Shown in pieces: positions 6,386 to 36,221 of a DNA stretch of 64,000 bases (its first letter is position 1; each line of letters starts with the position of its first letter). The DNA lies in the NCBI GenBank assembly GCA_029256085.1, contig JAQSYP010000002.1, positions 264,426 to 328,425 of the forward strand, read 5' to 3'. The translations under genes and the position numbers were made by a program. The DNA is from Bacillales bacterium (GTDB lineage Bacteria > Bacillota > Bacilli > CAJFEE01). The notes below the pieces were generated by a model that saw nothing but the letters and a program-made list of their open reading frames with translations, ran no database searches and had not been told where the DNA came from.

Positions 6386-6997
6386 TTACTTTCCCCCATT
6401 TCTATTCATTTCCTTCAAAATAACTTTTTCAAAATGTTCTTTACTAGCGACACCCTCAATTCTTTCTTCTCCAATAATGAATGTTGGAACGACACGTATT
6501 CGCTCTTCTGTATATGCAAACTCAAGTGCTTTAACTTGTACAGCTTTATACTTCCTAGAATGTAATGCGTTAGCAAACAAACTAGTATCTAGTCCAATTT
6601 CTCCACCAAGTTTAGTTAGAACTTCGATTTCTCCAATGTTTTGACTCTCTTGAAAAAGAGCTATAAAAATTCTATCGTTATACTCCTTACCTTTACCAAA
6701 TTCTTTTGCGAAGTGATAACCTTCAAAAGCTAAATCGGTATATGGGTGTGGGGAGAAGTTTGGTAGTTGCATTTCGACACCAAATTTTTCAGCCATGGGC
6801 TTAATCGATGTTTCCCAAGCATTTCTTTTAGCAGGATCATTAACCGGATCTAACTTAGGCGAAGGACTAGGGCACAATTCATATGGCATCCACTCAACTT
6901 CAACATCTTTATCTACTACTGCTGCATCAAATGGCGCTTTCGCTAAAAAACAAAACGGACATACATAATCTGAAAAAACTTTTATTTTTAAAGCCAT
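6386..6997 (-). CDS. DsbA family (FrnE-like) thiol-disulfide oxidoreductase
   Basis: CPFC active site inside a thioredoxin-like fold (KIKVFSDYVCPFCFLAK). Confidence 0.75.
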   Translation of the reverse strand: MALKIKVFSDYVCPFCFLAKAPFDAAVVDKDVEVEWMPYELCPSPSPKLDPVNDPAKRNAWETSIKPMAEKFGVEMQLPNFSPHPYTDLAFEGYHFAKEFGKGKEYNDRIFIALFQESQNIGEIEVLTKLGGEIGLDTSLFANALHSRKYKAVQVKALEFAYTEERIRVVPTFIIGEERIEGVASKEHFEKVILKEMNRNGGK

Positions 6998-7068
6998 TTA
7001 ACTTTCTCCCTCCGTTGTAACCGTAACAATTACAGTTACATCAAATTTTAAAAAAAATCGAACAATTA

Positions 7069-7497
7069 TCATTCAATTTTTTTGTTTAATACCTCAACTA
7101 GATCGTTCATGGTAACATTTTTCAAAACATTTTCCATTGCTTCCTGAGCTTGAAGTAATATTATTTCAAGTGTTGCCTGGATATTTGCACCGATTGGACA
7201 ATTTGGATTAGGATTTTCATGTATTTGAAAAAGTTCGCCCTCATCAACAACTTCGACTGCTCTATACACATCAAGTAGTGTAATTTCAACCAATCTCTTT
7301 TGAAGAGATGCTCCTCCAGTACCTAGTCGTACTTGGATGTAGCCAGCCTTTTTTAACATACCCATAATCCTTCTAATTACAACTGCATTAGTATTTACAC
7401 TTCCAGCAATAAACTCAGACGTACATATGTCCTCATTTTGAGTAGAAATAATACTAAGGATATGTACAGCTACTGAGAAACGACTACTTATTTTCAT
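7069..7497 (-). CDS. Rrf2 family transcriptional regulator
   Basis: N-terminus MKISSRFSVAVHILSII…GMLKKAGYI is the Rrf2 winged HTH. First gene of an apparent three-gene minus-strand operon with the DsbA-like and NAD(P)H-binding genes. Confidence 0.8.
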   Translation of the reverse strand: MKISSRFSVAVHILSIISTQNEDICTSEFIAGSVNTNAVVIRRIMGMLKKAGYIQVRLGTGGASLQKRLVEITLLDVYRAVEVVDEGELFQIHENPNPNCPIGANIQATLEIILLQAQEAMENVLKNVTMNDLVEVLNKKIE

Positions 7498-7696
7498 TTA
7501 CAATCACCTCCTGATGTAACTATTATAGTTACATCATTTGTTAAATGTCAAATATTATCTTCCTTCTAAATTAAATATTCGCTGACTATCTGCTCTGACT
7601 TTTACCTATCCAAAAAATACACAATTTAGTTTTTCGCAATATTCTGAAGTTTTGTAGTAAAATTATATGTAAGATAGTTTAAGGGTGGTGGGTAAA

Positions 7697-8398
7697 ATGA
7701 GTCTTGATTTTGATTATAATTATGTCAGGCAAGATAATATTATTGTTTTTTATAAAGAGAAATCATATATTGATGAAACAATTAATGTAATTAAAGAAGC
7801 CCAGGTTACGTTATCCAAATATTTTGAACTAACTTTAGAAAATCATAATATTCGAGTCGTTTTAACACCGAGTAGACTTGAATTTGATAAGCAAGTTTTA
7901 AATTTCTTAAAAATATCTTCCGAAACTCCCTCAAGAAGAAGCAGAATTGCCCAACCTCAAGGTACCGACCTAGTTCTTTTATCACCTACAGCATACTTTC
8001 TAGATTCAATTTACCGCTACAATTATGAAGAATATTCGCGCCTCCTTTGTCATGAACTTACACATATTTACCATGAAATATTATCACCTGATATGGAAAA
8101 AGTTCCGCGATGGTTTTCAGAAGGACTTGCTATATATCTTTCAGAACAGTGGATATATGAAGACGAGTTTAAATTACCTGTTGCTAGTGGGAATATCCCA
8201 ACACTTGATGAAATTAATGAAGATATTAATCTAGCATATGAGTGGGGTTGGCCAATAATTAAATATACAAATGAGATTTATGGAAAAGAAACTATTCTAA
8301 GATGCATCAAACAGGATAATTATCAAGAATTCACTAATTTCATGAGTGCTGAATTTGATTTAATAGAAGAGAACAGTAGGGAGTGGTTTAGTAGGTGA
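7697..8398 (+). CDS. putative zinc metallopeptidase-like protein (HEXXH…E motif)
   Basis: HELTHIYHE followed about 19 residues later by WFSEGLA, a gluzincin-like arrangement. Start at the ATG after GGTGGG. Confidence 0.4.
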   Translation: MSLDFDYNYVRQDNIIVFYKEKSYIDETINVIKEAQVTLSKYFELTLENHNIRVVLTPSRLEFDKQVLNFLKISSETPSRRSRIAQPQGTDLVLLSPTAYFLDSIYRYNYEEYSRLLCHELTHIYHEILSPDMEKVPRWFSEGLAIYLSEQWIYEDEFKLPVASGNIPTLDEINEDINLAYEWGWPIIKYTNEIYGKETILRCIKQDNYQEFTNFMSAEFDLIEENSREWFSR

Positions 8399-32895: not shown

Positions 32896-35082
32896 ATGGC
32901 AAAAAGTGTAGTAATAGCTGAGAAGCCTTCCGTTGCACGTGATATCGCAAATGTCCTTAAGTGTACGAGAAAAGGTAATGGTTTTTTAGAAGGGGATAAA
33001 TATATAGTAACTTGGGCACTAGGACATTTAGTTACCCTAGCTGATCCGGAAGCTTACGATAACAAATATAAAGCATGGAATTTAGAAGATCTTCCAATGC
33101 TTCCTGAAAATATGAAGCTAGTAGTAATGAAGCAAACAGGAAAGCAGTTCAATACTGTGAAGGCACAATTAAGTCGTAATGATGTAAATGAAATAATTGT
33201 AGCTACAGATGCAGGTAGAGAAGGAGAATTAGTTGCACGTTGGATTATTGACAAAGCAAAAGTACATAAACCGATAAAACGTCTATGGATTTCTTCTGTA
33301 ACTGATAAGGCTATTAAAGATGGATTCAATAACTTAAAACCAGGTAAAGCTTATGAAAATCTATATGCATCAGCGGTAGCTCGCTCTGAAGCTGACTGGT
33401 ATATAGGATTAAATGCTACTCGTGCTTTAACGACAAAATTCAATGCTCAATTAAACTGTGGCAGAGTGCAAACTCCAACAGTTGCCATGGTTGCAGCACG
33501 AGAAGATGAAATTAAAAGTTTTAAACCGCAAACATATTATGGCATTGAAGCCCAAACTGATCAAATCAAGTTAACTTGGCAGGATGCAAATGGGAATAGT
33601 CGTAGCTTCAATAAAGAAAAAGTTGCCGATATCGTAAACTCTATTGGTAGAAAAGATGCGACTGTTATCTCGGTTGACCGCAAGAAAAAGAAAACATTTG
33701 CACCAGCACTTTACGATTTAACCGAGTTGCAGCGTGACGCTAATAAAATCTTTGGGTATTCTGCTAAAGAAACATTAAATATTATGCAAAAATTGTACGA
33801 ACAGCATAAAGTTTTAACTTACCCGCGTACCGATTCACGATATTTGTCTTCTGATATAGTGGGCACAATTCCGGATAGACTTAAAGCTTGCGCTACTGGC
33901 GAATATCGATCGCTTGTTGGGAAAATTAGCAAGCCTATTAAAGCATCAAAATCATTCGTTGATGACAGCAAAGTCAGTGATCACCATGCCATCATTCCGA
34001 CTGAGGAATATGTTAATTTTTCTGCGTTCACTGATAAAGAACGTAAAATATATGATCTTGTTGTGAAAAGATTTTTATCTGTTTTATTGCCTGCTTTTGA
34101 ATACGAACAGTTAACAGTACAGGCAAAAATCGGTAACGAAAAGTTCATAGCAAAGGGTAAATCAGTAATTAATTACGGTTGGAAAGAAGTTTATCAAAAT
34201 CGGTTTGAGGATGAGGAAACTGACGATGTCAAAGAACAACTTCTGCCCCGTCTTAACAACGGAGATATCTTAAAGACTAAATTAATCGTGCAAACTTCAG
34301 GACAAACAAAGCCACCTGCACGTTTTACTGAAGCAACACTACTTTCGGCAATGGAAAATCCGACTAAATATATGGAAACAAATGATAAAAAGCTTGTAGA
34401 CATGTTAAAGTCAACAGGCGGATTAGGTACAGTAGCCACACGAGCAGATATCATTGATAAATTATTTAATTCTTTTTTATTAGAAAAACGTGGAAGTCAG
34501 GAAATTTTCATTACTTCAAAAGGGCGCCAACTTTTAGATTTAGTCCCTGAGGAATTAAAATCTCCAGCAACAACAGCCGAGTGGGAACAAAAGCTTGAAC
34601 TAATTGCTAAAGGTAAGCTGAAGAAAGATGTTTTCATTAACGAAGTAAAAAAACATACAAAAGAAATTGTCAGTGAAATCAAATCTAGCACTAAAAAGTA
34701 TAAGCACGACAACATCTCAACAAAGTCATGCCCAGACTGTGGTAAGGCAATGCTTGAGGTTAATAGTAAAAAAGGTAAAATGCTAGTTTGCCAAGACCGA
34801 GAATGTGGACATAGAAAAAATGTAGCTCGCGTGACAAATGCCCGTTGCCCACAATGTAAGAAGAAAATGGAGCTCCGTGGTGAAGGTGAAGGTCAAATAT
34901 TTTCATGTGTGTGTGGACACCGTGAAAAACTATCGGCATTCGAAGCAAGACGTAAGAAAGAATCTGGTGGCAAAATCGACAAACGAACTGTTCAAAATTA
35001 TTTAAAACAGCAAGAAAAGGAATCAGAACCAATTAATAACCCTTTCGCTGACTTATTAAAAGGGATGAAGTTTGATAAATAA
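32896..35082 (+). CDS. topB: DNA topoisomerase III
   Basis: 728 aa. TOPRIM N-terminus (SVVIAEKPSVARDIANVL…YIVTWALGHL), the active-site tyrosine region, and C-terminal Cys4 zinc ribbons (CPDCGK…CQDRECGH; CPQCKK…CVCGH). Confidence 0.9.
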   Translation: MAKSVVIAEKPSVARDIANVLKCTRKGNGFLEGDKYIVTWALGHLVTLADPEAYDNKYKAWNLEDLPMLPENMKLVVMKQTGKQFNTVKAQLSRNDVNEIIVATDAGREGELVARWIIDKAKVHKPIKRLWISSVTDKAIKDGFNNLKPGKAYENLYASAVARSEADWYIGLNATRALTTKFNAQLNCGRVQTPTVAMVAAREDEIKSFKPQTYYGIEAQTDQIKLTWQDANGNSRSFNKEKVADIVNSIGRKDATVISVDRKKKKTFAPALYDLTELQRDANKIFGYSAKETLNIMQKLYEQHKVLTYPRTDSRYLSSDIVGTIPDRLKACATGEYRSLVGKISKPIKASKSFVDDSKVSDHHAIIPTEEYVNFSAFTDKERKIYDLVVKRFLSVLLPAFEYEQLTVQAKIGNEKFIAKGKSVINYGWKEVYQNRFEDEETDDVKEQLLPRLNNGDILKTKLIVQTSGQTKPPARFTEATLLSAMENPTKYMETNDKKLVDMLKSTGGLGTVATRADIIDKLFNSFLLEKRGSQEIFITSKGRQLLDLVPEELKSPATTAEWEQKLELIAKGKLKKDVFINEVKKHTKEIVSEIKSSTKKYKHDNISTKSCPDCGKAMLEVNSKKGKMLVCQDRECGHRKNVARVTNARCPQCKKKMELRGEGEGQIFSCVCGHREKLSAFEARRKKESGGKIDKRTVQNYLKQQEKESEPINNPFADLLKGMKFDK

Positions 35083-35088
35083 AAAAAT

Positions 35089-35110
35089 GGTGAGTCGACA
35101 TTGACTCACC
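35089..35110. terminator. perfect 8-bp-stem hairpin GGTGAGTC-GACATT-GACTCACC (first copy)
   Basis: Seen in sequence. AAAAAAA on the 5' side gives a T-run on the minus strand. Confidence 0.5.
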
Positions 35111-35357
35111 AGGGTTGATGTTTTGGAATCTGCAAGACTCCTACGGGATCAGCGAGAAGCTACTTAAAAACTAAATTGATTCTTTGGATTGGAAAAATAG
35201 ATACTTTAATAAATCTGTGTTGATTGAAGCGAAGGTGATCGACTCCAGCGGGAACAGCACGAGCCGAAAATCCATTTTTGCTAGTGAAACTAGCAAAAAT
35301 TAGTTGAGGCCGTGCCCGCGGAAAGCGAGCACCGAAAGCGCAAATCAACAAAATAAT
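35111..35357. other. ~250-bp GC-richer block bounded by two identical hairpins; candidate structured ncRNA or mini-insertion
   Basis: Contains the perfect palindrome TTTTTGCTAGT-GAAA-ACTAGCAAAAA nested inside a longer-range pairing (GCGGG…GCACG with CGTGC.CCGC). No credible ORF. Confidence 0.3.
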
Positions 35358-35379
35358 GGTGAGTCGACATTGACTCACC
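35358..35379. terminator. identical second copy of the GGTGAGTCGACATTGACTCACC hairpin, with T-runs on both sides (bidirectional terminator)
   Basis: Seen in sequence. Followed by TTTTTT on the plus strand and preceded by AAAATAA. Confidence 0.6.
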
Positions 35380-35384
35380 ATTTT

Positions 35385-36221
35385 TTAGTAGCTTTTTCGT
35401 TTGTTAGAAAGGATTATGTAGTTAATTACTTTTTGCAAAGTAAAACCAACTAATAAAATCACAACTAATAATAGTGTAATACTAGCGCCTGGAGGAGTAC
35501 CCATTTCATACGATGATACTAGACCAGTAAAAATCCCAAAGACCGACGTCATTACCGCAACTACAAAAACTAATTTAAAACCTTTAGCGATTCGTATTGC
35601 AAACGCAGCCGGTAAAACTATTAACGCCGATACTAGTAAAACCCCTATCATCGGAATTATCACTGAGATTGCTAGTCCAGTCATTATACTAAATGACAGT
35701 GAAAGTAAGTTAGTATTAATCCCTACTGTATGCGCTGTGTCTTCGTCAAATGTTAGAAGATACAATGGCTTAAAAAATACCGCCAAATATAAGAGAATCA
35801 ATACAGTAATTCCTGCCAGAATATAAACTTGCTCTGGAGAAATAGTGACAATTGAACCAAATAAGTATTGTTCAATACTTACAGTTGAATCTCCTTTATT
35901 AAAGTTTGCTAAAAACAAAGCGAATGAAAGACCAGCAGCCATTAAAATAGCTATTGAAACCTCTGAATATGACTTATAGGCTCTTCTCATATATTCAATA
36001 CAAATAGAACCTACTAAAACTACTAAAATAGTAGCAAAAGTTATATTAATGTTTGCAAAAATCCCAATAGCAACCCCAGATAATGATATATGTGAAAGGG
36101 TGTCGGCCATTAAAGCCTGTCTTCTGAGAACAAGAAAGACTCCAAGAAGGGGTGCAATAATCGCTATTAGACTACCCGCCCAAAATGCCCGTTGCATGAA
36201 TTCAAGACCAAGCATTTCCAT
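35385..36221 (-). CDS. znuB: zinc/metal ABC transporter permease (ZnuB-like)
   Basis: 278 aa with about 8 TM segments, from the ABC-3 family ([27 protein letters not shown]). Last gene of the zur–znuACB cluster. Confidence 0.8.

Follow-up and report, generated by a model that had tools for sequence, protein, structure and literature searches.

Target repeats of insertion sequences (ISs) that belong to the IS1182 family range from 0 to 60 bp in ISfinder, and Siguier et al. reportedly noted palindromic targets in this family in 2015, as relayed in the work on IS1272 and TnSha1. These two members insert into hairpins, mostly terminators just downstream of genes (PMC5678879, PMC4923244), one documented IS1272 target being a 24-bp inverted repeat (IR) with 9-bp arms and a 6-bp spacer (PMC5678879). 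Described as a small RNA (sRNA), tsr24 (Rfam RF02577) of Staphylococcus aureus was detected by RNA sequencing (RNA-seq) and reverse transcription PCR (RT-PCR) and, of three reference strains, one does not have it (PMC4752604). The element is multi-copy in this species according to a 2026 preprint, which uses the term 'tsr24 family' and names a locus 'tsr24_10'. Here we describe a structured, non-coding block in a 64-kb stretch of a Bacillales bacterium contig (JAQSYP010000002.1; hereafter the window, i.e. the whole stretch of DNA that was analysed), located between topB and a convergent permease gene. The block holds a member of a large, dispersed Bacillales repeat family whose core recurs at the left ends of an IS1182 subgroup and resembles tsr24. 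On balance, we cautiously favour reading it as a transposase-less remnant of mobile DNA beside a terminator, whose hairpin-directed insertion would have duplicated that terminator and which would now be a passenger in the topB 3′ untranslated region (UTR).

When positions 35061-35400 were compared by BLAST with all fetched loci, matches were confined to 35218-35352 and included locus L188 (87% over 90 nt, E 7e-24) and locus L088 (E 2e-23). The core also matched a Kurthia plasmid, with 79% identity across 88 nt (E 8e-10). A pattern for the 3′ end of this core (GGAAAGCGA-N13-AAATCAACA) retrieved at least 118 stretches from a species-representative genome collection, nearly all from Bacillaceae and allies (Neobacillus, Metabacillus, Fictibacillus, Cytobacillus, Niallia, Oceanobacillus and Jeotgalibacillus, plus a Sporolactobacillaceae metagenome-assembled genome (MAG)), with several genomes having more than one match. 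A pattern for the centre of the core retrieved at least 120 metagenome stretches, mostly from unrelated Bacillales, with no further copy from this organism among the matches listed. A covariance model (R1) built from 81 non-redundant copies, the window copy among them, recovered 122 copies at E ≤ 1e-5 in 100 genome loci and ten in IMG/VR contigs; the core is also found on two Kurthia plasmids, in one case with nothing annotated beneath the model match, and the family is present on chromosomes, plasmids and prophage contigs of Bacillales. Within the window, the model returned one significant match and one weak match to a relic. The orthologous block of a close relative (L003), which lay outside the seed, scored 64.4 bits (E 1.4e-15). 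The suggestion made from the sequence alone that the block could be a miniature inserted element is supported by these pattern and covariance-model matches, which place it as a non-coding member of a dispersed family. Its parts and its neighbours are as follows:

35218-35350, plus strand: intact structured core, a rod-like hairpin of 133 nt (covariance model 104 bits; seed member)
35218-35225 with 35343-35350: outer helix of the core, TGTTGATT/AATCAACA
35241-35246 and 35320-35327: conserved loop strands of the core, GACTCC and GGAAAGCG, respectively
Within the core: helices GCGGG/CCCGC and GCACG/CGTGC, and the apical hairpin at 35274-35300
35081-35111, no strand assigned: left direct-repeat copy, an A7 tract plus a 24-nt IR (9-nt arms TGGTGAGTC/GACTCACCA, 6-nt spacer GACATT)
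35350-35386, no strand assigned: right direct-repeat copy plus a T6 tract (35381-35386), terminator-like on both strands
35114-35160, plus strand: left arm (GTTGAT..GCAAGACTCCTACGGGATCAGCGAG) that is probably the sole remnant of another family copy (covariance model 11.8 bits)
35161-35217, plus strand: AT-rich spacer without detectable homologue, containing AAGCTACTTAAAAA
32896-35082, plus strand: topB, DNA topoisomerase III (Pfam Topoisom_bac 3.5e-116 plus Toprim; stop codon 35080-35082)
35385-36221, minus strand: ABC-3 family permease (ZnuB/MntC-like, NCBI name YceA, here znuB; Pfam ABC-3 3.5e-76)

Family members fold into a rod. Its outer helix is followed by an internal loop rich in purines (GGAGCGGAAGG / UGGAGCGGAAA), then by a second helix, the GACUCC/GGAAAGCG loop and a further two helices, and it is capped by an apical hairpin that varies among copies. 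This fold is well supported by covariation. RNAalifold predicted 23 pairs, 18 of them with compensatory changes; 92.2% of alignment cells were able to pair against 77.7% after shuffling of the same alignment, double changes numbered 299 against 94 in shuffles, none of 500 shuffles reached the observed values, and sliding the partners by 1-3 columns lowered pairing to 35-45%. The outer helix varies by subfamily (GTTGATT/AATCAAC, GTGATT/AATCAC, TGCTT/AAGCA and others) and the inner loops are nearly invariant, an invariance that is partly by construction as GACTCC and GGAAAGCG were used to collect the alignment. The window copy has both of these loop strands and belongs to an AT-rich apical subfamily (also L088, L105, L146, L188 and the Kurthia plasmid); when aligned to the model, 4 of its 23 pairs are marked non-standard, and its minimum-energy fold is the same rod. 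The whole region folds far better than shuffled sequence, with z = -9.8 on the plus and -8.3 on the minus strand. Across the family, 77 of 86 copies have the more stable fold on the plus strand, but the sense strand shows no enrichment of G-U pairs, leaving the test for the structure-forming strand ambiguous. As a separate observation, the 5′ CUGCGGG of GC-rich copies such as L039, L050 and L074 can pair with either CCCGCGG (3′ arm) or CCCGCAG (apical internal loop), making an alternative fold possible in these copies; the window copy lacks the second partner.

These data refine what had been read from the sequence alone. The GC-richness of the block (peaking at 0.50 over 35250-35349, where the window as a whole has 0.317) and its structure stand, with an extent of ~133 nt (35218-35350) in place of the ~250 nt proposed; the 106 nt to its left, which make up the rest of the insert, are AT-rich and found no homologues by BLAST among the fetched loci. 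The inner palindrome ATTTTTGCTAGT/ACTAGCAAAAAT at 35274-35300 is perfect, and the minimum-energy fold contains the proposed longer-range pairing between CCAGCGGG..GCACG.GCC and GGCCGTGCCCGCGG, which matches helices that covary across the family. In contrast, GGAAAGCG and CCGAAAGCG, previously taken for GNRA-like motifs, are the 3′ strands of conserved internal loops, not GNRA tetraloops. Dismissal of the only listed open reading frame (ORF) was correct: this minus-strand 73-aa frame, considered here for coding potential, is open in L003, but among 86 family copies 42 interrupt the same frame by stops, and Pfam gave no match for it (the scan covered eight ORFs between 30763 and 37922).

Further variants of the core were seen elsewhere. 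The mini variants of ~45 nt in L015, L020, L028, L076, L096 and L099, in which TGTTGATTGGAGC is joined directly to GGAAAGCGAG...AAATCAACA, look as if the sequence between the GCGGAA motifs, which recur in both arms, had been deleted. Six loci (L166, L183, L218, L221, L237 and L241) carry the core in the centre of a ~330-nt palindromic element with terminal repeats TGAATCAATTTCATAATT / AATTATGAAATTGATTCA, which shows one core to be embedded in differing outer shells. On the minus strand of L088, from the Sporolactobacillaceae MAG, positions ~6990-8000 hold ~1 kb of non-coding mosaic made up of full, partial and nested cores and the modules ACTTTTTCAGTGGC and AGCGGGAGACCACTGAAAAAGTACACTTAG. Canonical Bacillaceae-type copies, with flanks as in Cytobacillus and Neobacillus loci, also occur in L060 and L079, which are labelled Pseudomonas sp. 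ISL-84; this label may be wrong or the assembly contaminated. A near-threshold Rfam match to Bacillaceae-1 on the minus strand of L187 (219-279; 30.8 bits against a gathering score of 35) is unrelated to the repeat.

With respect to neighbouring genes, 42 copies were co-oriented, 26 anti-oriented, 27 convergent and 7 divergent. Copies cluster near gene 3′ ends and avoid divergent promoter regions, with a weak strand bias, a placement typical of tolerated mobile repeats. Clustering of ORFs from ~240 loci yielded as potential linked partners only common paralogues, i.e. ABC ATPases, histidine kinases, short-chain dehydrogenases/reductases and phage tape measure proteins, and our literature search found no named Bacillaceae repeat with the sequence of this family.

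At gathering thresholds, Rfam had no match anywhere in the window, and in 18 related loci none overlapped the repeat. Its only related model was tsr24. Below the gathering score of 50, the window copy aligned to tsr24 at 18.5 bits (E 0.086, model positions 137-198) and other family members at 27-33 bits (E down to 3e-4). The core and tsr24 share the series GACUCC..G.GGGA.CAG..CGAAGAC..CUGAG..CCC..GGAAAGCGA and the same nested helices (model positions ~130-203); they differ in that the tsr24 model also spans ~130 nt of the ISSau3 leader, absent from the window copy, and in that Rfam describes an sRNA rather than an IS module. The locus L245 is S. aureus ISSau3, the transcript of whose core received the name tsr24, and it contains the published tsr24 primer sequence. 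From left to right, ISSau3 consists of the left terminal repeat GAGGCTGGGACATAAAT, a hairpin, the core, the leader, the transposase gene, another hairpin and the right terminal repeat, and its core and transposase are found at 99% identity on many Staphylococcus plasmids. The Kurthia plasmid element has the same layout, and its transposase is annotated as IS1182-family (Pfam DDE_Tnp_1_6, DDE_Tnp_1 and DUF772). A tblastn search with this transposase returned six loci, L245 among them, all of which had the core on the opposite strand, 50-190 nt upstream of the start (6/6). ISSep1 of S. epidermidis likewise carries the core, and MITE-like copies (miniature inverted-repeat transposable elements, MITEs) in N. 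massiliamazoniensis have IS1182-type terminal repeats around it. In six Neobacillus loci (L016, L029, L040, L061, L069 and L104), inverted core pairs lie 150-520 nt apart around IS1182-type transposase remnants, consisting of the N-terminal MFKPRE..EYEFVSIDELVPDDHLLRLID plus C-terminal scraps and differing in length among species. The core may be a feature of an IS1182 subgroup, or a separate element that repeatedly landed at one place, namely IS left ends.

A promoter-like site matching 10 of 12 positions, with an extended -10 (L245 9866-9837), lies inside the ISSau3 transposase start and points outward through the leader and core. Such a site would yield an antisense RNA of about tsr24 length. 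In this respect the element recalls IS10 RNA-OUT, by functional analogy only, as a structured antisense RNA would be made; in contrast to RNA-OUT, the core does not overlap the transposase start codon. It is conceivable, if doubtful, that the core is the structured 3′ domain of an outward antisense RNA controlling the transposases of the IS1182 subgroup, or a single-strand hairpin recognised by the transposition machinery, with hairpin duplication reflecting insertion across an extruded cruciform. If true, this would explain the very variable target repeat length of the IS1182 family, and a single ancient functional class would take in both the tsr24 'sRNA' and the Bacillales repeats that stand unannotated in their hundreds.

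Within the window, the core sits beside a duplicated hairpin. As reported from the sequence alone, GGTGAGTC-GACATT-GACTCACC occurs at 35089-35110 and 35358-35379; adding a closing T/A pair extends it to the 24-nt IR TGGTGAGTC-GACATT-GACTCACCA at 35088-35111 and 35357-35380. This 24-mer is present exactly twice in the 64 kb, even with three mismatches allowed (shuffled sequence: zero), and no further copy of the hairpin was found in the window or in 242 loci. An automated repeat search gave 37 nt at 92% identity for the flanking repeat; read directly from the sequence, the direct repeat is 31 nt long, comprises an A-tract and the hairpin (AAAA[A/T]AATGGTGAGTCGACATTGACTCACCA; 35081-35111 versus 35350-35380, one mismatch) and brackets a 238-nt insert (35112-35349) that starts with GGGTTGAT and ends with ATCAAC. 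Judged by the sequence features of intrinsic terminators (a stem containing GC, a loop of 3-8 nt and a U-tract), the right hairpin is terminator-like on either strand. The left one, which lies 6 nt past the topB stop, is so on the minus strand only, i.e. for the znuB operon, having A7 upstream and no T-run downstream. This terminator-signal scan supports the terminator-like nature assigned to the hairpins earlier, and the right hairpin is predicted to be the first effective terminator for topB. Directly right of it, TTTTTTAGTAGCTT (35381-35394) combines the T-tract with the last znuB codons and is complementary at 13 of 14 positions to AAGCTACTTAAAAA (35157-35170), just after the relic arm, which may be a trace of inversion or rearrangement, or chance in AT-rich sequence. 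Separately, a hairpin after the transposase stop of the Kurthia plasmid IS (L278 748-789; GAAGGTGATGTC-GAATTT-GACATCACCTTC) resembles GGTGAGTC-GACATT-GACTCACC; this could be coincidence or common ancestry.

The relic arm at 35114-35160 is probably what remains of a second family copy. It resembles the family left arm with GACTCCTACGGGATCAGCG, and 24 of 27 positions are identical, by eye, to GCGAGACTCCTACGGGATCAGCGGGAC of L017; its P2 and P3 strands mismatch the right arm of the intact copy. The score of 11.8 bits corresponds to E 0.44 window-wide and to 9e-4 in a restricted, post-hoc search.

Three lineages were available for this locus in the collections: the window, L003 and L004. The block is present in the window and in L003, which share 94.2% nucleotide identity in topB and 95.6% in znuB, and is absent from L004, whose identity to either is ~91% and whose spacer measures 90 nt. 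Five to six nt after the topB stop, L004 carries the hairpin GGTGACTC-ATTAC-GAGTCACC, orthologous to the left hairpin of the window and differing from it by a G/C swap at a paired stem position that keeps the pairing; it is predicted to act as a minus-strand terminator, with a second, unrelated L004 hairpin terminating the plus strand. Because L004 keeps this orthologous hairpin at the same position, we take the left hairpin to be ancestral host sequence and the right one to be the extra copy. Since both the window and L003 carry the block at 94-96% flanking-gene identity, the insertion is older than their split and thus not recent. In the comparison of topB-znuB spacers envisaged in the sequence-only reading, L004 lacks the block and retains an orthologous hairpin; a clean empty site with an identical single hairpin was not among the three lineages.

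Between L003 and the window, the left arm of the core differs by 7 substitutions and 14 indel columns over ~135 nt, the spacer by 2 changes in 106 nt, and both hairpins are identical. Two changes in the apical hairpin, at 35282 and 35292, fall on paired positions and keep the pair. In L003 (5345-5362; window position 35242), a 13-nt insertion, AATGCATGCATTT, creates the perfect 18-nt palindrome CGAAATGCATGCATTTCG and destroys GACTCC, and the model score is 64 bits, compared with 104 for the window copy. Taken together, these differences are consistent with a passenger in decay between terminators under selection. At the same spot after GACTCC, an extra module of 60-70 nt, starting TCGAAAATGC..GCATTTTCTTCGTGCG, is found in L105, L041, L190, L212 and L228; here, either expansion occurs at a fixed site or a nested element has left its footprint.

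How does this insert compare with known mobile repeats? With MITEs and other structured repeats (bcr1 of B. cereus, Correia of Neisseria, BOX/RUP/SPRITE of pneumococci, ERIC/REP of enterobacteria), the family shares small size, lack of coding capacity, dispersal, location at gene 3′ ends, hairpins with compensatory changes and presence/absence polymorphism; the window insert itself is 238 nt long, non-coding, present in the window and L003 and absent from L004, as for a classical MITE. In contrast to a typical MITE, conservation is highest in the interior loops, and the outer stem varies between subfamilies. The window copy has a flanking repeat of 31 nt in place of a short (2-10 bp) duplication, and the 8-nt TGTTGATT/AATCAACA are the outer helix of the fold, not classical terminal repeats. 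Many Bacillaceae copies do have a shell with terminal repeats GGCTSTGTTAAA and, by eye, 8-bp AT-rich target duplications, often in A/T tracts beside terminators. By description, bcr1 is set apart by its 5-bp repeats and two-hairpin shape; we likewise rejected identity with bcr1-18, which is described as B. cereus-specific and differently shaped. The unit of ~130 nt is larger than the 20-40 nt of REP/REPIN, which are mobilised by RAYT (a Y1 transposase), and the ~240 loci had no recurrent neighbour protein family beyond the common paralogues.

The reading we favour starts from the position of the intact module, and probably of the half-copy relic, beside the intrinsic terminator after topB. The same module stands in the stretch that separates the left terminal repeat from the transposase start codon in an IS1182 subgroup (ISSau3, ISSep1, the Kurthia plasmid IS and others) and in hundreds of solo or MITE-like copies across Bacillales. 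The window target, a 24-nt IR with 9-nt arms and a 6-nt spacer just past a gene, has the documented IS1272 geometry. Insertion would have been hairpin-directed, with cuts on either side of the palindrome, possibly extruded, duplicating it; as a hypothesis only, were the cuts across the base of a 24-nt cruciform, once extruded, staggered by ~7-8 nt, the linear sequence would amount to 31 nt. Since the left hairpin lacks a U-tract on the plus strand, topB transcripts would then continue across the module and end at the right hairpin. Because no promoter-like site, conserved ORF, transposase or IS terminal repeats were found, the module would be a passive 3′-UTR passenger rather than a gene. As for the earlier idea that a terminator was copied when something was inserted, the duplicated hairpin is real, and copying by the insertion event itself is plausible and unproven, the databases offering no clean empty site with one identical hairpin.

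Several points weigh against this account. IS1272 and TnSha1 delete or replace the target hairpin and do not duplicate it (PMC4923244, PMC5678879), so that the footprint at topB is the opposite. No other family copy examined has a long flanking repeat, the three lineages provided no clean empty site, and the metagenome matches listed included no other copy from this genome. Unlike IS1182-family elements, the insert has no transposase (none by tblastn with the Kurthia transposase across the 64 kb; block ORFs without Pfam match) and, by direct reading of 35000-35450, no terminal repeats of the GAGGCTGGGACA type found in ISSau3 and the Kurthia IS. The shell-type repeat GGCTNTGTTAA was likewise absent near the block, and no full-length IS with the shell repeat GGCTSTGTTAAA was present in the loci. 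Among nine diverse plasmid IS1182-family elements only two, ISSau3 and ISSep1, have the core, and IS1182 proper and six other members examined lack it. Finally, the relic assignment, at 11.8 bits, is weak.

An alternative that keeps the IS at the centre is decay in situ of a full IS1182-family element, later deletions having removed the transposase and terminal repeats and spared the left-end module(s). The core is the left-end module of such ISs, internally deleted copies that keep their cores occur in Neobacillus, and the half-copy relic together with the inverted scrap of right flank hints at rearrangements within the insert. We nevertheless regard this course as unlikely, as terminal repeats are outermost, and losing both while the 31-nt repeats abut the core end (..AAATCAAC|AAAATAATGG) needs two precise deletions; moreover, the 106 nt upstream of the core have no significant similarity to IS leaders. 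Quite unlikely, in our view, is a tsr24-type sRNA gene acting in trans, made up of the core and its own terminator (the right hairpin) and either independent or processed from the topB 3′ UTR. Detection of tsr24 by RNA-seq and RT-PCR speaks for it, as do the hairpin and T-run within ~15 nt of the ISSau3 and Kurthia IS cores, the promoter-like site that points into the core in ISSau3, the more stable plus strand and the weak co-orientation with upstream genes (42 vs 26). Yet no sigma-70-like promoter site was detected inside the window insert, leaving the independent sRNA gene proposed earlier without support, and the RNA that would be made in the IS context is antisense to a transposase leader, which the window insert lacks. 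Other points against this reading are that family copies are found in either orientation and keep away from promoter regions only, that a conserved loop motif is no longer present in the L003 orthologue, and that G-U pairs are not enriched on the sense strand.

Selection by the host for a cis element, in which the rod would stabilise the 3′ end of topB mRNA or insulate the convergent operons, is improbable to our minds. It would be consistent with the clustering of copies near gene 3′ ends, with retention of the block and of both perfectly conserved hairpins since before the window/L003 split, and with the pair-preserving apical changes; on the other hand, L004 does without the block, the excess of left-arm over spacer changes in L003 places the motifs outside local constraint, and a terminator role alone explains the conserved hairpins. 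Least credible is integration of a small circle at site-specific recombination sites, the 11-6-11 palindromes (AATGGTGAGTC-GACATT-GACTCACCATT) serving as tyrosine recombinase core sites. Such a cassette would agree with their geometry and with the asymmetric spacer being in direct orientation, but the site recurs nowhere else in the window or the 242 loci, no recombinase was present among the Pfam-scanned ORFs (no search aimed at recombinases was made), and the orthologous L004 hairpin at the same place is predicted to be an ordinary terminator. We also take the 11-6-11 palindrome to be unlike B. subtilis dif.

Turning to the neighbourhood, placement of the block between two convergent genes, as described earlier, was confirmed: topB and znuB face each other across a 302-nt spacer, and the T6 tract at 35381-35386 overlaps the znuB stop codon (35385-35387). 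The znuB gene adjoins genes for an ABC ATPase and a ZnuA-like binding protein in a ZnuA/ABC-ATPase/Fur-type cluster.

For this locus, the favoured reading means that annotation of the block as a gene or regulatory RNA should be avoided, and that the topB 3′ UTR is probably unusually long, at ~300 nt, with two identical terminators. For the family, the analysis links tsr24 in Rfam, the left ends of IS1182-family elements and a large unannotated GC-rich repeat family of Bacillales, which stood apart in the sources searched, and a proper covariance model would clear many spurious 'hypothetical protein' and sRNA calls. The duplicated terminator would represent a natural hairpin-associated insertion with an outcome opposite to that of IS1272, and could inform how such elements attack hairpins.

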